Assembly: GCA_031459535.1 (NCBI GenBank)
Contig: JAVKIJ010000013.1
Span: 1-51,063 of the forward strand
From: Candidatus Fervidifonticultor quintus
Lineage (GTDB): Bacteria; Sysuimicrobiota; Sysuimicrobiia; Sysuimicrobiales; Humicultoraceae
Reading direction: 5' to 3'
DNA length: 51,063 nucleotides
In this document: positions 1 through 14,950 of the stretch, in pieces
How positions within the stretch are numbered: position 1 is the stretch's first letter
Layout of the letters: each line of letters opens with the position of its first letter
Translations under genes and position numbers: made by a program
The notes under the pieces: model-generated
What the model was told of the DNA's origin: nothing
Seen by the model: only the letters and a program-made list of their open reading frames with translations
Database searches by the model: none

Positions 1-956
1 TGGGGCGTGAGCCCCAGCGCCCGCAGCGCGGCCACAAACTCTCGCGCATCATAGGCTTTATCGGCCCCTATGGTCCCGCGATCTCGTCGCTTTACTTCGG
101 CCGCCAAGTGCACCGCCGTCTCCCGCTCGGCCGTGCCCGTCGCCGGCGTGACGCGCGCCGCGACCACCAGCCCATGGTGATTCTCCATCACCACATGGCC
201 CTGATAGGCCAGTTTGGCTTCGCGCCCGGGCCCGCGTCGGGCCAGCTTCGCCTCCGGGTCGGTGGTGGACGCATGGGTGGCATTGCTTCGGCGTTCCCCG
301 TGGAAGTTGACCGTCGGGTTGCCCGGGTCATCTGGCGGCGGCCCATCGCGCCGGTCCTTCCGACGGAAGCTCTTCAAGCTCGCCCACGCCTCGATCAGCG
401 TGGCATCGACGGTGAAGTGCTCATCCGACAGCAAATTCTGCGCGCGGGCCTGTGCCAGTACCCGCTCGAAGAACCGCTCGGCGATCTCCCCCTTCAGCAG
501 GCGCTGCCGGTTCTTCGTAAAGGTCGTGGAATCCCACACGGGGTCGTCCATGTTCAGCCCCACGAACCAGCGAAACAGCAAGTTGTAGTCCAACTGCTCC
601 ATCAGCAGGCGCTCGCTGCGCACCGTGTAGAGGACCTGCAGCAGCAAGGCTTTCAGCAACTTCTCGGGCGGCACCGACGGGCGTCCGGTGCGTGCATACA
701 GACGATCGAATTCAGGCGAGAGCTCCGCCAGCACCCGATCGACCATCGCCCGGATAGCGCGCAGCGGGTGGTCCTGCGGCACGCGCTGCTCGGGGGAGAT
801 GTAGCTGAACATGCCGTCCTGGTCGAAGTTATCTCCACGCATCGTCGTCTGCTCCTTCGAAGAGATCGTTGGCGGCTGCGCTTTGACCAGACTATACGCA
901 GAGGCGTGCACTTTGTGAAGCCACAAGATATGGAGCGTTTTTCAGCATCCTGCTAG
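1..956 (-). mobile_element. IS5-family insertion sequence, left end (element continues beyond the window start)
   Basis: Transposase ORF plus terminal sequence tttttcagcatcctg (938-952) abutting CTAG (953-956), typical of IS5 ends and targets. Confidence 0.85.
3..842 (-). CDS. IS5-family DDE transposase (3'-partial)
   Basis: Manual translation MRGDNFDQDGMFSYISPEQRVPQDHPLR...GRPSVPPEKLLKALLLQVLY..RSERLLMEQLDYNLLFRWFVGL...HFTVDATLIEAWAS...GADKAYD; SD GAAGGAG upstream; absent from the ORF track because it runs off the window. Confidence 0.93.
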   Translation of the reverse strand, partial: MRGDNFDQDGMFSYISPEQRVPQDHPLRAIRAMVDRVLAELSPEFDRLYARTGRPSVPPEKLLKALLLQVLYTVRSERLLMEQLDYNLLFRWFVGLNMDDPVWDSTTFTKNRQRLLKGEIAERFFERVLAQARAQNLLSDEHFTVDATLIEAWASLKSFRRKDRRDGPPPDDPGNPTVNFHGERRSNATHASTTDPEAKLARRGPGREAKLAYQGHVVMENHHGLVVAARVTPATGTAERETAVHLAAEVKRRDRGTIGADKAYDAREFVAALRALGLTP

Positions 957-1003
957 ACTGAATTCCACTGGACCAGACTCCATACGCGTCGGCCGGAGGA
1001 CCT

Positions 1004-1726
1004 GTGCGCTACCCGCCCAAGAGCCAGGCGGTGGAGATGCTCGATGCACCGGAGCGGGATCCGGCGGAGTTCGACGGGCTGTTGGCGGCCATCCGCCGGA
1101 CCAACCGGTGGTACGGCGGCTACCGCCTCATCCTGAGCTACCTCGAGCGCTTCGCCCGAGCCATCCCCCATCGACCGTTGACCATCCTCGATGTGGCTAC
1201 GGCCTCGGCCGACGTCCCGGCGGCGATCACGGCGTGGGCGCGGCGCCGTCATCTCGCGGTGCGCATCGTCGCCCTCGACATCAACCCTGACGTCTTGCGA
1301 CGGGCCCGGCGCACAGCCTGGCGCTGCCCCGAGATCACCCTGATCCGTGCCGACGCCCTGGCCCTCCCGTGCCCGGATCGTAGCGTTGACGTGACTATCA
1401 GCGCCCTGGCCCTGCACCACTTTCCATTCCAGCAGGCGGTGGTCGTGCTACGGGAGATCCAGCGAGTGTCCAGGAGCGGATTCGTGGTCAACGACGTGTT
1501 GCGGTCGTGGTCAGCGTACCTCGGCGCCGTGGCCGATACCTGGCTGGCGGGCCGCAACCGCCTGGCGCGGCACGACGGCCCCCTGTCGGTCCGGCGCGCG
1601 TTCACGTGGCCAGAGTTCCACGCGCTGGTGCTCGAAGCCGGGCTCGACGGCGTCGAGATCAGGCGCCACCCGGTGCAGCGGGCCGCGATCGTGCGGTGGC
1701 CGCCGCGTGCTCGAGATGGACGCTGA
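1004..1726 (+). CDS. Class I SAM-dependent methyltransferase
   Basis: ILDVATASADVP (degenerate motif I), ALDIN, ADALALP, VDVTISALALHHF, RHDGPLSVRRAF; GGAGGA SD before GTG. Confidence 0.88.
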   Translation: MRYPPKSQAVEMLDAPERDPAEFDGLLAAIRRTNRWYGGYRLILSYLERFARAIPHRPLTILDVATASADVPAAITAWARRRHLAVRIVALDINPDVLRRARRTAWRCPEITLIRADALALPCPDRSVDVTISALALHHFPFQQAVVVLREIQRVSRSGFVVNDVLRSWSAYLGAVADTWLAGRNRLARHDGPLSVRRAFTWPEFHALVLEAGLDGVEIRRHPVQRAAIVRWPPRARDGR

Positions 1727-2906
1727 TGTGGTGGTCGTCGGAGCCGGCCCCGCCGGCAGTGCCACAGCGCTGCTGTTGGCGCGGCGCGGCCACCGGGTGG
1801 TTGTTGTGGACAAGGCTGCGTTTCCCCGGCCGAAGCCGTGCGGCGGATATCTCAACCCCTCGGCGGTGGCCACGCTCGACCGCTTGGGACTGGGATCCGC
1901 TGTGGCTCCACTGGGGACTACCATTTCCGGGATGTTCCTGTCGGGATACAACGGGGCTCGCGTCTGGGTGCCGTTCTCCTCGGGCAGAGCGATGCTCGTC
2001 CCTCGCGAGGCCCTGGATGCGGTACTGCTCAGACAGGCCGCCGCGGCCGACACGGGCGTCATCGAGGAGTTCCACGTGGACCACGTGATGCCGGGGCCGG
2101 CCCCGATGGTGATCGGGCGGCACCGAGGCCGCAGCGCGCGGCTGTCGGCGCGGCTGGTCGTGGGCGCGGACGGGCTCAGGTCAACGACGGCCCGCGCGTT
2201 GGGGCCGCCAGCCATTCCCACCGGCGGGCACTATACCGTCGGGGCGCATTTCGAGAACCTCCAGGCACCCATCGCCGGCGGCGAGCTCCACCTGGGACCG
2301 GGCTGGTACGTCGGCGCCGCCCTCTACGGTGGCGGCATGGGGAACATCGTCGTCGCGCTGTCCCGGCAGGCGTTTCGCCAGCGCAGAGCCAGCCCGGACG
2401 CGGTCTTTGCCGGCGCTTGTCACGCGCTGCCCGCGCTGCGGTGCATGATGCGGGGGGCGCGGCGCGTGACGCCGTTCGTCTCGGTGGGGCCCCTCGGATA
2501 CGCCCGGCGACCAGCAGCCGGCTGCGGCGTGCTCCTCGTCGGCGACGCGGCCGGGACCGTGGATCCCATGACTGGTGAAGGGATTGCCCTGTCCTTGCGC
2601 GGTGCAGAGCTCGCCGCCGATGCCGTAGACCGCCTGTTGCGAACGGACACAGGTCAGGCGCCGAGCGCGCGCAGTGCGGAGGCGTACGAGAGGGCGCGCA
2701 AGGCCGCCTTTGCCGGCACCTGGCGGCTCGGCCAGGTGCTCCAGTGGATCGTGCGGCAGCCAAACTTGTGGCCGGCGTTGTTTCGGAGGCTGTGTTCGGA
2801 GCCCCGGCTGGCCGCCCAGCTGCTCGGAGCCGTTAGCGGCCTGGTCGCGGCACAGGAAGTCATCTCGCCGGGCTTTGTGATCAGGCTGCTTCGGGCGAGA
2901 GGGTGA
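1716..2906 (+). CDS. FAD-dependent oxidoreductase (geranylgeranyl reductase/aromatic hydroxylase family)
   Basis: VVVVGAGPAG, FPRPKPCG, VGADG, LVGDAAGTVDPMTGEGI motifs. Confidence 0.9.
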   Translation: MDADVVVVGAGPAGSATALLLARRGHRVVVVDKAAFPRPKPCGGYLNPSAVATLDRLGLGSAVAPLGTTISGMFLSGYNGARVWVPFSSGRAMLVPREALDAVLLRQAAAADTGVIEEFHVDHVMPGPAPMVIGRHRGRSARLSARLVVGADGLRSTTARALGPPAIPTGGHYTVGAHFENLQAPIAGGELHLGPGWYVGAALYGGGMGNIVVALSRQAFRQRRASPDAVFAGACHALPALRCMMRGARRVTPFVSVGPLGYARRPAAGCGVLLVGDAAGTVDPMTGEGIALSLRGAELAADAVDRLLRTDTGQAPSARSAEAYERARKAAFAGTWRLGQVLQWIVRQPNLWPALFRRLCSEPRLAAQLLGAVSGLVAAQEVISPGFVIRLLRARG

Positions 2907-3385
2907 CCGCGGTCGTGCGCACCGTTCATCGCGCGACGATCGCCGCTCCTTTGGAGGTGGCCGTTGCCCTCGCGCGAGATGTGAGTGCGTGGCCCGATCT
3001 GCTGTCTGACTACCGCTGGTGCCGGATCCACGAGCAGACACCGAACCGCCTGGTGTTCTCCATGGGCGCATGGATCCGAGGCTGGCCCGCGCGCTGGACC
3101 GCGGTGCAGGAGTTGCACCTCTCACCCCGCTGCATCGTGTTTCGTCACATCGGCGGCCTGACCAGGGGCATGCTGGTCGAGTGGCGATTCGTGCCCAACG
3201 GCGGCGGCGTGGACGTTGAGATCGTTCACGAGCTCGTCCTGCCATGGCCGTGGATCGGCCGGCTGGTGAGCGACCGCATCGTCGGTCCCTGGTTCATCGA
3301 CCACATCGCGCGCCGCACGCTGAAAGCCGTGCAGGCCAGGGCGGAAGCGGCAGGGCGCCGGACGTCCGGAGGGGCAGCGGGATGA
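2903..3385 (+). CDS. SRPBCC/START family protein (polyketide cyclase/dehydrase-like)
   Basis: TIAAPLEVAVALARDVSAWPDLL...FRHIGGLTRGMLVEWRF pattern; GTGA and ATGA overlaps with neighbours. Confidence 0.85.
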   Translation: MTAVVRTVHRATIAAPLEVAVALARDVSAWPDLLSDYRWCRIHEQTPNRLVFSMGAWIRGWPARWTAVQELHLSPRCIVFRHIGGLTRGMLVEWRFVPNGGGVDVEIVHELVLPWPWIGRLVSDRIVGPWFIDHIARRTLKAVQARAEAAGRRTSGGAAG

Positions 3386-10648: not shown

Positions 10649-11218
10649 CTACAAGAGCCGCGCGGTCACGCAGCCTTCGACCACCTCGATGAGCGCCCCA
10701 CCGGTCTTTCCGTCGCCCATGGTGCAGTTGACGACCAACGTCCCCTCGACCTCAGCGATGCCCGGTGACTCATGGATGTGGCCGCAGGCGTGCGCCTTCG
10801 GGCGCACCCGTGCCAGGATCTCGCGCACCGTGTGGGACCCCACGTGCTGTCCCGTGAATGCCACGTCCAGCGTGCCGCGCGGTGGCTCGTGTGTCACCAG
10901 CAGGTCGCATGGCCCTCCTACCTCGGGCCCGCCGAACGACACGCCGCCGATCACCACAGGCTCTGCCCCCGCCAGCCGGCCTCTGCGCGTGATGGTCTCT
11001 GCGGCGCGGGCATCATCCATGTTGCCGGGAACCGCGAGCACCGGCACGGGGAGGACGTGGAGGAGATCGAGGGCCTCTTCTCCCCGGCCCAGGTGGGTCA
11101 GGTCGCCGGGTAGCAGGACGACATCGGGGTGGTGCTCGGCGACCAGGGCTCGCACGCGCGCGATGCGCTCGGGACGGCCGTGGATGTCGGCGCAGGCCAG
11201 CACCCGCAGCCCGGCCAT
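10649..11218 (-). CDS. Calcineurin-like metallophosphoesterase
   Basis: ADIHG, PGDLT, PGNMD, THEPP, GHIHE. Confidence 0.9.
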   Translation of the reverse strand: MAGLRVLACADIHGRPERIARVRALVAEHHPDVVLLPGDLTHLGRGEEALDLLHVLPVPVLAVPGNMDDARAAETITRRGRLAGAEPVVIGGVSFGGPEVGGPCDLLVTHEPPRGTLDVAFTGQHVGSHTVREILARVRPKAHACGHIHESPGIAEVEGTLVVNCTMGDGKTGGALIEVVEGCVTARLL

Positions 11219-11222
11219 GCCC

Positions 11223-11750
11223 CTAACCCTCCGATGTCTGCGACGACCCGGACGACCCGGTCGCCACGTGACGCCGGTAGGCCTCGCGCACGAGGCGCCA
11301 GGCCTCGCCCGCTCCAGCCCACCCGTAGATCTCCACCGCCTTCTCCTCGAGGGTCTTGTACGTCGTGAAAAAGTGTTCGATCTCCTTGAGAAAGTGCGGC
11401 GGCACATGGTCGAGGTCGGCCACGCCGTCGAAGCGGGGGTCGCCGAGGGGCACCGCCAGGATCTTCTGATCCCGGCCCTTCTCGTCCCGCATATCCAGCA
11501 CCCCGATGGGTCGCACCTCCACCAGGCAGCCCGGGAAGGTGGGTTCATAGACGAAGATCAACACGTCCAGATGGTCGCCGTCTTCGGCCATGGTATCCAG
11601 CAGGAAGCCGTAGTCTGCGGGATAGTGCAGCGGCGAGTACAGCACGCGATCTAGGCGGATGCCTCCGTGCGCCGGGTCGATCTCGTACTTGTTGCGGCTG
11701 CCCCGCGGTACCTCCACTTGTGCCAGCAACGCCCGCGGCTGGTCGCTCAT
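11223..11750 (-). CDS. ppa: Family I inorganic pyrophosphatase
   Basis: RNKYE, LDRVLY, YPADYG, DGDHLDV, DQKIL, HFFTTYK. Confidence 0.95.
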   Translation of the reverse strand: MSDQPRALLAQVEVPRGSRNKYEIDPAHGGIRLDRVLYSPLHYPADYGFLLDTMAEDGDHLDVLIFVYEPTFPGCLVEVRPIGVLDMRDEKGRDQKILAVPLGDPRFDGVADLDHVPPHFLKEIEHFFTTYKTLEEKAVEIYGWAGAGEAWRLVREAYRRHVATGSSGSSQTSEG

Positions 11751-12148
11751 GTCGCCTCTCCTGTCAGGTCCTTGATGAGGTCCCGGATCCGCTGCGCAAG
11801 CCCGTCGCGCACCTCGCGGTAGAAGTCCATCTCTTGCCCGGCCGGATTGGGGATCGGCCAGTGCAGGCTGGGGATGCCCGGGGTGACCGGGCAGGCCTCT
11901 TCGGCACACAGCCCAATCACCAGCCGCACGTCGGGATTCATGGCCTGCGCCATGGACTTCGGCCGGTGCCGTTCAATATCGACGCCGATCTCGCGCATGA
12001 CGGCCACGGCCTCTCTGCGCACCGCCTCCCCAGGGTCCGTCCCCGCGGACCGCGCGGCCCAACCCGCCGGCGCCAGGGCGTTGAAGAGCCCCTCGGCCAT
12101 CTGCGAGCGGGCGGTGTTGTGGTGTCAAACGAACAGGACGTGGCGCAC
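11747..12148 (-). CDS. arsC: Thioredoxin-type arsenate reductase (LMW-PTP fold), predicted selenoprotein with Sec at codon 8
   Basis: GAGGAGG SD then GTG CGC CAC GTC CTG TTC GTT TGA CAC CAC AAC ACC GCC CGC TCG CAG ATG GCC GAG = MRHVLFV[U]HHNTARSQMAE; also SAGT, LCAEEACP, LHW. Confidence 0.85.
12088..12112 (-). promoter_or_regulatory. Candidate bacterial SECIS hairpin downstream of the in-frame UGA
   Basis: mRNA GCCC-G-CUCG-C[AGAUG]G-C-CGAG-GGGC; apical loop starts about 22 nt after UGA with G at loop position 2. Confidence 0.6.
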
Positions 12149-12170
12149 GACGGCCTCCTCGATCGAAGTG

Positions 12171-12827
12171 CTACACATTCAGCTCGCGAAGTTCCCCGGT
12201 AGCGACGTAGATGACCCGTTCAGCCATGTTGGTGATGTGGTCGGCCGCGCGCTCGAGGTGCTGGGCAACGAGGAGTAGCTCCAGCGCCCGCGGGACCGTG
12301 GCGGGATCGCTGATCATGTAGGTGAGCAACTCCCGGAAGACCTGGCTGCGGAGGGCGTCCACCTCGTCATCCATTCTGGCGGCCGCTTCGGCCAGGGTCA
12401 CGTCACGGCTGAGGAACGCCTCGACGACCCGGTGCAGCATGTTCTGGACCAGGGCTTCCATCCGCGGGATGTCAATCAACGGCTTGAGCAACGGCTGATG
12501 GGCCAGCCGCTTCGCGGCCTTCGAGATACCCTCGGCGTGGTCGGCCATGCGCTCCAGGTCGATGGTGATGGCCAGCACGGCGGCAATGGTTCGCAGGTCG
12601 GAGGCCATGGGCTGCTGCAGGACCAGCAGGCGCATGTACCGGTTCTCCAGGTCCATGTGGAGAGCGTCGATGCCGTCGTCGTCGCGAATGACCTGATCGG
12701 CTCGGGCCGGGTCCCGGTTCCGCAGCGCTTCGACGGACGCGTGGATGGCTGCCCCTGCTATTCGCGCCATGTGCAGCACGTCCGCCTGCAGTGCCTCGAG
12801 TTCTCGGACAAAGAGGTCTCTCGTCAC
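12171..12827 (-). CDS. phoU: Phosphate signalling protein PhoU
   Basis: DDDGID, LQQPMASDLR, DLERMADHA, DDEVD, LERAADHITNMAERVIY. Confidence 0.96.
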   Translation of the reverse strand: MTRDLFVRELEALQADVLHMARIAGAAIHASVEALRNRDPARADQVIRDDDGIDALHMDLENRYMRLLVLQQPMASDLRTIAAVLAITIDLERMADHAEGISKAAKRLAHQPLLKPLIDIPRMEALVQNMLHRVVEAFLSRDVTLAEAAARMDDEVDALRSQVFRELLTYMISDPATVPRALELLLVAQHLERAADHITNMAERVIYVATGELRELNV

Positions 12828-12840
12828 GCCCGGTCCCGAC

Positions 12841-13779
12841 CTACCGGAGGTCGAGGCGGTACCCGATCCCCCGCACGGCCAGGATGCGCACGCCTCCGCG
12901 GGCCTCGACCTTCCTACGCAGCCAGCCCACGTGCGTATCCAGGGTCCGGGAGTCGCCGAAGTAGTCTTCGCCCCACACCTCGCGCAGGAGCCGCTCGCGC
13001 CGGACCACCTTGCCCTGGTGCCTGAGGAGGAGATGCAGCAGGCTGAACTCCTTTGCGGTAAGCGGAACCGGCTCGCCGGCCACCGTGGTCTCGTGACGCT
13101 CGGTGTCCATGACGAGGCGGCCAGCCACGAGCCGGTGATCGGCCCCGGTCCGCATGACGAGGCCTTCGAGGACGTTGGCGATGTCCTCGCACCGGTCGGT
13201 GCCGGTCTCGAGCATCTCGCAGATGTCTTTCCACTTGATGATTTCCCGGGCGTCACGCCGACTGGTGAACAGGGCCTCCAGGGCGTCCCGCAGCAGGTCG
13301 TCTCCGCGGTTCTCCAGGCGGTGCAGGGCACGGGTGTGGGAGAACACCTCGCGCCCGCTGCGCGCTTCCTCCAACGCCTGGCTGATCTCCCTGGCGCACT
13401 GCAGCATGACCTCGCCCAGCGCCCGCGCGGTGGGCAGGACGCGACGGATCCGGTGGATGGCCAACCGCGCGGCGGCCGCCTCGATGGCGTCCAGCACGTC
13501 GTCCAGGAATCCGGTCAGGGACTGCAGGGCTTCTCGCTCGCCGGGCGGACCGCCAAGGCGCGCCAGCGCCTCGAAGAGGTCCCGGGCGACCGCGTCGCCC
13601 TTGTGCTCCAGGTCGCGGACAGTCTGCCAGACGCCGTCGAAAGCCGCCCGGGCCTCCAACCCGGCCATCAGGGACTCGGCAGCGTCCAGAATGGCACGGG
13701 CCATCTCTTCGAGCAGCTCGAACTCTCGCTCGAGGACGGACGGAGGAGTGCTGGTGGAGAAGGCCCGAACATCAGCCAT
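12841..13779 (-). CDS. DUF47 (Pit accessory/PhoU-like) domain fused to an OmpR/PhoB-type winged-helix DNA-binding domain
   Basis: N-terminal LEHKGD, LDDVLD, LENRGD, IIKWKDICEMLETGTDRCED; C-terminal LTAKEFSLL, LLREVWG, SRTLDTHVGWLRRK, VRGIGYR. Confidence 0.88.
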   Translation of the reverse strand: MADVRAFSTSTPPSVLEREFELLEEMARAILDAAESLMAGLEARAAFDGVWQTVRDLEHKGDAVARDLFEALARLGGPPGEREALQSLTGFLDDVLDAIEAAAARLAIHRIRRVLPTARALGEVMLQCAREISQALEEARSGREVFSHTRALHRLENRGDDLLRDALEALFTSRRDAREIIKWKDICEMLETGTDRCEDIANVLEGLVMRTGADHRLVAGRLVMDTERHETTVAGEPVPLTAKEFSLLHLLLRHQGKVVRRERLLREVWGEDYFGDSRTLDTHVGWLRRKVEARGGVRILAVRGIGYRLDLR

Positions 13780-13816
13780 GCTGCATTGAGCATACCACGC
13801 CCGCGGCGCGGGCGCG

Positions 13817-14950
13817 CTAGCCGTAGAGCGGCAACGGGTGCGGTCGCAGCGCGTCGCCGATGCGGCGGCGAACGCCCTCAAAGACCTCCAGATCGTATTG
13901 CCCCACGAACGTGATGGCCTCGCCCCGGCGACCGGCGCGAGCCGTGCGTCCCACCCGGTGCACGTAGGTGTCCAGGTCTTCCGGCACGTCGTAGTTAATG
14001 ACGTGGGAGACATCGGGCAGGTCCAGACCCCGCGAGGCCACATTGGTGGCGACCAACACCCGGGCCTGCCCCGCGGCGAACGCCGCAAGGGCGCGTAGCC
14101 GGGCCCCCTGGGTCATGTCACCGTGCAGGACCTCGGCGTGCACCCCGCGCTCCCGCAGGACCTTCGCCAGGCGATCCACCCCCCGCCGCGTGCGCCGGAA
14201 GACCAGGGCCGACGGCACCTCGCCGCTGGTCAGCAGCAGCCGCAGCGCCCGCACCTTGTCCTGCTCGGCCACTTCCAGGAAGTACTGGGTGACGGTTTGG
14301 ACGGTCGGCGCTGGCGCCGCGATCCTGATCCAGACCGGGCGCCGCAGGTACCGGACCGCCAGGCTGGAGATGGCATCGGGCAGGGTCGCCGAGAAGAGCG
14401 CGGTCTGGCGGGCCGCCGGCGTCTGACGGATGATGGCCTCCACATCGGGCAGGAACCCCATGTCCAGCATCCGGTCGGCTTCGTCCAGCACCAGGAAGCG
14501 GATTGCGTCGAGGCGCACACTGCCGCGCCGCAGGTGGTCCAGCAGCCGGCCCGGTGTCGCCACAATCACTTGCACGCCCGCACGCAGCGACGCCAGCTGC
14601 CTTGCCATGGGCTGGCCGCCGTAGAGCGCGGCGGTGCGGAGACGCGATGTGGCCAGCCCGCGGACGACGTCCGAGATCTGGATGGCCAGTTCGCGGGTCG
14701 GGGCCAGGACCAGCGCGCCAGCAGCCCGCGCCCTGCGGTCGAGACGCTCGACCATGGGGATCGCGAAGGCGCCGGTCTTGCCTGAACCGGTCTGCGCCTG
14801 TCCGGCCACGTCGTGGCCGTCCAGCAGCGCGGGAATCGCCTGCGACTGAATCGGGGTGGGTTCGGTCCACCCCAGAGCTGAGATGGCCCGGAGGGTTTCC
14901 GGGCTCAAGGCGAAGCCGCCGAACGCCGCTTCGCGCGTCGAGGTAGAAAT
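13817..14950 (-). CDS. DEAD-box RNA helicase (probable ATT start)
   Basis: PTPIQ, AQTGSGKT, PTRELA, TPGRL, DEAD, SAT, HGD, RGLD, HRVGRTAR. Confidence 0.93.
   Translation of the reverse strand: MSTSTREAAFGGFALSPETLRAISALGWTEPTPIQSQAIPALLDGHDVAGQAQTGSGKTGAFAIPMVERLDRRARAAGALVLAPTRELAIQISDVVRGLATSRLRTAALYGGQPMARQLASLRAGVQVIVATPGRLLDHLRRGSVRLDAIRFLVLDEADRMLDMGFLPDVEAIIRQTPAARQTALFSATLPDAISSLAVRYLRRPVWIRIAAPAPTVQTVTQYFLEVAEQDKVRALRLLLTSGEVPSALVFRRTRRGVDRLAKVLRERGVHAEVLHGDMTQGARLRALAAFAAGQARVLVATNVASRGLDLPDVSHVINYDVPEDLDTYVHRVGRTARAGRRGEAITFVGQYDLEVFEGVRRRIGDALRPHPLPLYG

Follow-up and report, generated by a model that had tools for sequence, protein, structure and literature searches.

The locus and the predicted protein

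The window analyzed here is contig JAVKIJ010000013.1 of Candidatus Fervidifonticultor quintus over its full length of 51,063 nucleotides (nt). On its minus strand, between phoU and the inorganic pyrophosphatase gene ppa, lies a small gene that very probably encodes a selenoprotein of 133 residues with the low-molecular-weight protein tyrosine phosphatase (LMW-PTP) fold, of the thioredoxin-coupled arsenate reductase (ArsC) type, in which an in-frame UGA at codon 8 would be read as selenocysteine (Sec). Read in the direction of the gene, a Shine-Dalgarno sequence and a GTG are followed by codons for RHVLFV, the TGA (12127-12125), HHNTARSQMAEG and, further on, LCAEEACP; the terminal TGA (11749-11747) overlaps the ATG of ppa. 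The open reading frame (ORF) called under translation table 11 (11747-12100, 117 amino acids) starts at Met17, i.e., downstream of the P-loop. An earlier first-pass annotation of this DNA had noted that the called ORF lacks its active site, that GAGGAGG, a GTG at 12148 and RHVLFV-TGA precede it in frame, and that the TGA falls on the column of the nucleophilic cysteine. A rereading of the sequence bears out the first two observations, and the third recurs in all 43 orthologous places found. The resolving pair that it read in LCAEEACP is intact as well, with both Cys81 and Cys86 present. The features of the locus are collected in Table 1.

Table 1. Features at the predicted selenoprotein locus of the window (positions of the whole stretch; nt of the hairpins are counted from the U of the UGA).
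Feature	Position	Strand	Details
Metallophosphoesterase gene	10649..11200	-	Downstream of ppa; Pfam Metallophos 5.2e-14
Inorganic pyrophosphatase gene ppa	11223..11750	-	Directly downstream, with overlap between the Sec gene stop and the ppa start; Pfam Pyrophosphatase 8.1e-54
Coding sequence of the predicted Sec-containing ArsC-type protein	11750..12148	-	133 codons, GTG start, Sec as codon 8; translated with TGA as U
Asn101 (PNP)	11846..11848	-	Asp (DP motif) in at least 90% of 42 homologs
Presumed resolving pair C-AEEA-C	11891..11908	-	Cys81 11908-11906, Cys86 11893-11891
Hairpin H3, GGUCCG-CGGGGA-CGGACC	12034..12051	-	nt 77-94; codons for (R/G/S)-S-A-G-T-(D/E)-P
Hairpin H1, candidate Sec insertion sequence	12088..12112	-	nt 16-40, loop about nt 25-32
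In-frame UGA, predicted selenocysteine (residue 8)	12125..12127	-	P-loop nucleophile column; Cys in homologs
Shine-Dalgarno sequence GAGGAGG	12154..12160	-	5-nt spacer to GTG 12148-12146
phoU	12171..12821	-	Directly upstream; Pfam PhoU 2.7e-45
PhoU_div (DUF47) and OmpR-type winged-helix ORF	12841..14088	-	Upstream of phoU; Trans_reg_C 2.9e-27, PhoU_div 7.9e-14

By sequence, the protein is assigned to the LMW-PTP/ArsC fold. LMWPc (PF01451) is its sole Pfam match (3.9e-21; 76.2 bits against a cut-off of 23.2), its best NCBIfam matches are models of the thioredoxin-type arsenate reductases, and the closest solved structures are annotated as arsenate reductases (1Y1L at 1.1e-21 and the pI258 ArsC at about 4e-17). 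The P-loop, U8-HHNTA-R14-S15, follows the pattern C-x5-R-(S/T) with Sec replacing Cys. Across the 42 aligned homologs, the nucleophile (U here, Cys in all 41 other sequences of this alignment, A4), N11, R14, S15, C81 and C86 are invariant. Cys81 and Cys86 align to Cys82 and Cys89 of the pI258 ArsC, in a loop that is two residues shorter.

Conservation of the UGA and the selenocysteine machinery

A first search of 60 relatives returned 26 places with one in-frame TGA, in each case in the same column of the motif VLFV-TGA-xxN-x-ARS. When all 94 genomes of the phylum were searched, this number rose to 43 places in 40 genomes (52-99% identity), each with exactly one TGA; for the remaining 17 places the column was checked after fetching and is the same in all. 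Such constancy goes far beyond chance. One further TGA case comes from a metagenome contig. Two of the genomes are flagged as unpublished: from G022 come a SelD row (L249) and one of the 43 places, L030, which forms a row of alignments A1-A3, and G013 provides a single SelD row (L251); no claim depends on either of them alone. One contig, G026:C33, matches the window without any difference in the compared region and is not independent, as it probably represents the same population binned twice. Over its positions 1-3287 (L022) it shows 99-100% identity to the window across the PhoU, Sec, Ppa and phosphoesterase genes; G026 is assigned to another genus, shows 6% contamination and possesses a Sec ortholog of its own (C23, 63% identical), which makes mis-binning of this contig probable.

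Both sides of the TGA are kept as coding sequence. Codons 1-7 and 9-16 stay in frame among orthologs and co-occurring strains with mainly synonymous variation, including a synonymous GTT to GTC change in codon 7, upstream of the TGA. Contigs of co-occurring strains from other runs differ from window positions 12062-12128 at third codon positions only. All 43 aligned genes carry an ATG or GTG (in one case CTG) seven codons ahead of the TGA. These patterns bear on the reading that the locus is a pseudogene, or that the true start is the ATG at 12100 and yields a 117-residue protein without P-loop, the TGA being an ordinary stop or untranslated. Gene callers do annotate it in this way: 73 of the 74 closest database proteins (at least 59% identity) are shortened, covering at most 90% of the query and mostly measuring 113-128 amino acids. 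TGA is also the commonest stop codon of the genome (707 of 1308 long ORFs), which means that any recoding is site-specific and not a change of the code. We nevertheless consider this reading very unlikely. The eight codons from the TGA to Met17 encode the invariant N11, R14 and S15, a start codon with Shine-Dalgarno sequence precedes the TGA in all genes, and the TGA persists across 52-99% identity without any other defect. Moreover, some orthologs have Ile or Val as residue 17; in three of the first 25 aligned the codon is ATC instead of ATG, so that no start exists there and the shortened gene model fails in those. Among the best 150 representatives at 50% identity, five start at query residue 17; all five are at least 61% identical and belong to the same clade, and no second Sec-like truncated group was found in this set. 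One database protein, P0074 (195 amino acids), joins the truncated product to a pyrophosphatase (PF01451 plus PF00719), which probably reflects a frameshift or read-through at the overlapping stop and start in one metagenome contig.

That a TGC or TGT was turned into this TGA by faulty sequencing or assembly is extremely improbable, as 40 genomes, each assembled separately, share the codon at 43 places. Two more DNA runs, X2 and X3, which belong to the same study as the sample that is the likely source, yielded contigs that span 12032-12158 and agree with the window at 12125-12127. The runs that contain the sequence are labeled as hot springs metagenome. Of two RNA-library runs, X4 covers 11600-11748 only, while X5 holds one contig of 310 nt (12016-12325, seven differences) that spans the end of phoU, the TGA and H3 and is no proof of transcription. 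As judged from the alignments, selection has kept the UGA at codon 8 throughout an entire clade of Candidatus Sysuimicrobiota (CSP1-3) genomes.

Outside this clade the column holds cysteine, both in the Cys-form loci and in the more distant homologs (at most 50% identity). Cysteine also occurs in one database ortholog of 70% identity, P0003. A quick maximum-likelihood tree with 119 rows unites 26 Sec forms and P0003 in a single clade (SH-like approximate likelihood ratio test, SH-aLRT, 99), within which P0003 is nested with supports of 84-92. This placement suggests one change from Cys to Sec and a later reversion in P0003. The tree was rooted at the midpoint and rests on few columns; it comprises loci L021, L023-L050, L058-L099 and L139-L174 together with 16 database proteins, duplicates and rows missed by the extraction pattern being left out. 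When P0003 was used as the query of a metagenome scan, its own contig was not among the contigs returned.

The organisms of the clade that carries the Sec gene possess the machinery for Sec insertion. The source genome is a metagenome-assembled genome of 138 contigs and 88.9% completeness. It contains a tRNA-Sec (66 bits; called SeC with anticodon tca by ARAGORN), a selD (374 bits) that itself contains a single TGA in frame, and FdhA, the alpha subunit of a formate dehydrogenase, with an in-frame TGA in CARL-TGA-HAPSV (G000:C57:32732, L131). The two remaining genes are incomplete in this assembly, which counts against the selenoprotein assignment: a contig end carries the first 149 residues of selA, and the final 50 or so residues of selB lie at the start of the contig in which the tRNA-Sec is also encoded. 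In all five of the relatives carrying the Sec gene for which this was determined, selA and selB are adjacent, full length and above cut-off, and SelD with one TGA is found in 39 of 41 relatives. The proposal of the first-pass annotation that this is a Sec enzyme rather than a pseudogene has thus held up: the machinery is present, with selC and selD complete and selA and selB as contig-end pieces, the relatives keep TGA in a column where distant homologs have Cys, and the other DNA runs carry no variant at the codon.

Two hairpins downstream of the UGA

Bacterial Sec insertion sequences (SECIS) are held to lie directly after the UGA, in a range of 16-37 nt. Two SECIS of the phylum offer a local comparison. 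The 31 SelD genes (L016, L247-L276) share a conserved hairpin at nt 29-47 after the UGA with GU in its loop, for example CUGGCGCAG-GUC-CUGCGCCAG; a hairpin nearer the UGA, seen in the genome's own sequence alone, is not the conserved one. In fdhA (L131), the hairpin after the TGA has its loop, GGUCU, at nt 22-26 and carries a U at nt 17, an arrangement that resembles the E. coli fdhF SECIS.

In the gene under study, the first-pass annotation had pointed to a hairpin at 12088-12112, here called H1, as the SECIS. Its existence and its position were confirmed: folding of the 58 nt that follow the UGA gives H1 as the structure of minimum energy, with two helices of 4 bp, a bulged G, and a loop, AGAUG, that begins 22 nt past the UGA. 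Its role as SECIS receives moderate comparative support, while its folding energy does not rise above that of shuffled sequences. Among 42 distinct Sec-form genes, pairing is retained in 80.7% of 336 cells, compared with 44-59.5% in slid controls, and three pairs vary at both positions, as GC/AU/GU, CG/GC and CG/GC/UG. Of 500 shuffles, none attains this paired share and one attains the covariation score. Sec forms keep on average 6.45 of the eight pairs versus 3.5 in 135 distinct Cys homologs; the mean is likewise 3.5 in the 68 Cys homologs that encode the identical peptide ARSQMAEG. This contrast is confounded by shared ancestry, because all Sec forms belong to one clade. A scan of synonymous sites shows the codons of Ala13 (GCC) and Arg14 (CGC) to be almost fixed. 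In the co-occurring strains, one substitution replaces the C at nt 18 behind the UGA with U and leaves the H1 pair in place as U-G.

Several observations weigh against H1 as the SECIS. The remaining 19% of cells are unpaired. Its energy is no better than chance in a sequence this rich in GC (z of +0.38, with 124 of 200 shuffles folding at least as well; z of -0.82 for the 33-nt core); folding energies of single sequences are uninformative here. The loop lacks the GU seen in the SelD and FdhA loops. A search of Rfam matched no family to the region, apart from a chance microRNA match (E of 8.9), and RNAalifold found no consensus structure in the first alignment of 25 sequences and 70 columns. 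Compared with the E. coli fdhF type in general, H1 shares its location just 3' of the UGA and a G early in the loop, and differs in a loop that lies slightly further out and is devoid of GU.

Four other candidate structures were set aside. H1' (nt 12-18 with 30-36) is 76.4% paired and shows no covariation; H0, a hairpin that takes in the GA of the UGA, is 70.1% paired and absent from the window's own sequence; H2 (nt 30-59, loop UGUUCAAC) is 71.4% paired against 64% for its slid control; and the long-range helix of the 108-nt minimum-energy fold is by eye not conserved in alignment A2.

The synonymous-site scan also revealed three fully fixed codons, Ser TCC, Ala GCG and Thr ACG, and these led to a second hairpin, H3. 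Its consensus is G-N-UCCG, loop CGGGNA and CGGA-N-C, and the motif occurs once in the genome. No other structure in the gene is as well conserved as H3, which is also the only strong helix returned by RNAalifold. In the same 42 genes, 97.6% of 252 cells are paired, a share that none of 500 shuffles equals. Pair 78-93 takes five forms (CG 27, GC 11, AU 2, UA 1 and UG 1); the changes in this second pair exchange Asp, Glu or Ala on one side and, on the other, codons for Arg, Gly or Ser that all have G at the second position. Every one of the 42 Sec forms carries H3, 36 with all six pairs and the others with five, while only one of 135 Cys homologs is fully paired (6/6). From these comparisons, H3 appears to be an element that is specific to the Sec form.

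One possibility is that H3 (12051-12034) and not H1 is required for Sec insertion, either as the SECIS or as an accessory recoding signal some 74 nt from the UGA. The pairing with its five pair types including U-G, the invariant synonymous sites, the invariant loop base G84 and the near absence of the fully paired form from Cys homologs all speak for such a role. Still, we regard it as rather unlikely. The SECIS of SelD and FdhA in this phylum lie near the UGA and have GU in the loop, whereas the H3 loop has no U, and the function of the E. coli SECIS depends on a short spacing. All Sec forms constitute one clade, so the link with Sec may reflect shared ancestry. In addition, the stem has a U-C mismatch in five genes, the sole U-G case is one sequence, and a palindrome at the DNA level would produce almost the same pattern. 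Since H3 is too distant from the UGA in comparison with the SelD and FdhA hairpins, H1 is the likelier SECIS of the two, as a candidate.

Substrate, known relatives and implications

Given a SECIS of this kind, SelB would bring Sec-tRNA(Sec) to the UGA, guided by an mRNA hairpin for which H1 (nt 16-40) is the candidate. In the finished protein, the selenolate of Sec8 would attack an oxyanion bound in the U-x5-R-S loop, Cys81 would then attack the selenium and free the reduced product, and Cys86 would resolve the Se-S bond to give a Cys81-Cys86 disulfide, which thioredoxin would reduce. This cascade is modeled on the Cys10/Cys82/Cys89 mechanism of the S. aureus pI258 ArsC.

The genes around the Sec gene point to phosphate. 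Of 26 ortholog loci, 22 have the Sec gene next to PhoU, Ppa or a divergent DUF47 gene, and in both DUF47 loci that were checked a PHO4/Pit transporter gene follows the DUF47 gene. In the window, the true start of the gene at 12841-14088 lies inside the ORF; its architecture without receiver domain is unusual for a possible phosphate regulator. One Sec-form locus (L046:1980-3364) has two S-adenosylmethionine-dependent methyltransferase genes after the Sec gene.

The name arsenate reductase is an assignment by homology, and arsenate as the substrate is inferred from it. We consider arsenate that enters via phosphate transporters to be the most likely substrate, as the most economical reading that fits the phosphate-gene neighborhood; it is the least secure step of the interpretation. 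The known system closest in kind is the thioredoxin-coupled ArsC of LMW-PTP fold (S. aureus pI258 and B. subtilis; 1LJL, 1JF8 and 1JL3; TIGR02691), which belongs to the same Pfam family and shares the P-loop and the two aligned cysteines. The differences from that system lie in the Sec nucleophile and in a number of traits that weaken the case for arsenate. NCBIfam scores remain below the equivalog cut-offs (73.3 versus 174.3 bits for TIGR02691 and 73.9 versus 215 for NF010053). The resolving cysteines are spaced as C-x4-C instead of C-x6-C. Asn101 replaces the near-invariant Asp of the family's DP motif, presumably the equivalent of Asp105 in the pI258 ArsC; in other Sec-form lineages this Asp is kept. 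No ars operon context is present here, arsR not having been searched for: neither ACR3 nor ArsB was found in this 88.9%-complete genome, and none of the 26 Sec loci, taken with flanks of roughly 1.5 kb, contains ACR3. ACR3 exceeds the cut-off in five of 41 relatives. In two of these, G011 (L243, G011:C90) and G009 (L047, G009:C241), it stands directly beside a canonical Cys-type ArsC with CTHNSARS, C-x6-C and LPDP, a paralog separate from the Sec form. As ACR3 pairs with the Cys paralog and not with the Sec loci, the physiological substrate may not be arsenate. For the class proposed in the first-pass annotation, a thioredoxin-type arsenate reductase, this means that the LMW-PTP fold, U-x5-R-S and both cysteines agree with it by sequence, while the sub-cut-off score, the Asn and the phosphate neighbors do not.

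A possible, if somewhat improbable, alternative is therefore a genuine selenoprotein whose role is not arsenic detoxification, i.e., a Sec-dependent phosphatase or another reductase of oxyanions or phospho-substrates in phosphate metabolism. The phosphate-gene neighbors, the lack of a detected ACR3 or ArsB in its own genome, the pairing of ACR3 with the separate paralog, the scores under the equivalog cut-offs and a fold that is also that of the LMW phosphatases are in its favor. Yet, both resolving cysteines of the ArsC redox cascade are invariant, a pair that LMW-PTPs do without. Fifteen of the 16 best solved relatives are arsenate reductases, and phosphatases of the YwlE type (YwlE being a protein phosphatase) match far more weakly, at 1.8e-06 versus 1e-21 for ArsC. 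A phosphatase requires a general-acid Asp, and that position is Asn here. The phosphate context suits arsenate too, as arsenate enters cells via phosphate transporters.

The best solved relative (1.1e-21) is 1Y1L, the 'arsenate reductase (arsC)' of Archaeoglobus fulgidus. It has the P-loop VLFV-C-xHNTARS, the C-x4-C spacing (C-EESS-C) and an Asn in xNP (ENP), but its nucleophile is Cys and it is archaeal. This is a structural-genomics entry, and we know of no published activity for it.

Selenoproteins named arsenate reductase have been described before, with a different fold. The relevant parts of the literature list a Sec 'arsenate reductase' (UxxS) and an 'arsenate reductase-like' protein (UxxC) under COG1393, pfam03960, cd03032, TIGR00014 or NF041106 (PMC1088965, PMC2398784, PMC9312934, PMC13188914), which are groups with the thioredoxin-like fold of ArsC/Spx, and tables of a further source list 'ArsC-like' (PMC1794560). 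The window protein shares with these the name and the presence of Sec in a redox enzyme of the arsenate reductase type; the fold differs. As far as those parts of the sources describe the known forms, it is set apart by belonging to PF01451 and not PF03960, and by the motif U-H-H-N...R-S in place of UxxS or UxxC. TIGR00014 and NF041106 are not among the NCBIfam matches of the protein (E of at most 0.001), and NF041106 matches nothing in the whole genome. The terms 'phosphatase' and 'low molecular weight' do not occur in the main texts of PMC13188914, PMC13326102 (BSepDB), PMC12013277 (deep-Sep) and PMC9312934, and no PF01451 or LMW entry was seen in those of these selenoprotein main texts in which it was looked for. 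Full-text searching of the literature with selenoprotein and LMW-PTP terms returned nothing relevant, and the paper that describes the phylum contains no word starting with 'selen'. Because the published Sec 'arsenate reductases' have a different fold, the Sec form with LMW-PTP fold appears to be new and undescribed as far as the main texts and tables compared here go. More far-reaching, and in our view doubtful, is the proposal that it is the first selenoenzyme of this fold with Sec insertion that depends on H3 about 74 nt downstream, as a distal or bipartite recoding signal beyond the accepted position of bacterial SECIS.

If confirmed, the gene would add a family of selenoproteins whose fold had no earlier link to selenium. 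In this family, the P-loop nucleophile of an oxyanion reductase with a phosphatase fold would be Sec, in contrast to the many UxxC families of thioredoxin fold. P0003 within the Sec clade and the canonical Cys paralogs in the phylum offer a natural Sec/Cys pair to ask what selenium gains in the chemistry of arsenate or other oxyanions. The finding would also correct a systematic mis-annotation, since databases store the family truncated at the N-terminus and thus deprived of its active site, while H3, specific to the Sec form, provides a testable case for the maximal distance of a bacterial recoding signal from its UGA. Finally, the position of the gene among phosphate genes suggests a housekeeping role that would connect the uptake of phosphate with the removal of arsenate in these hot-spring bacteria.

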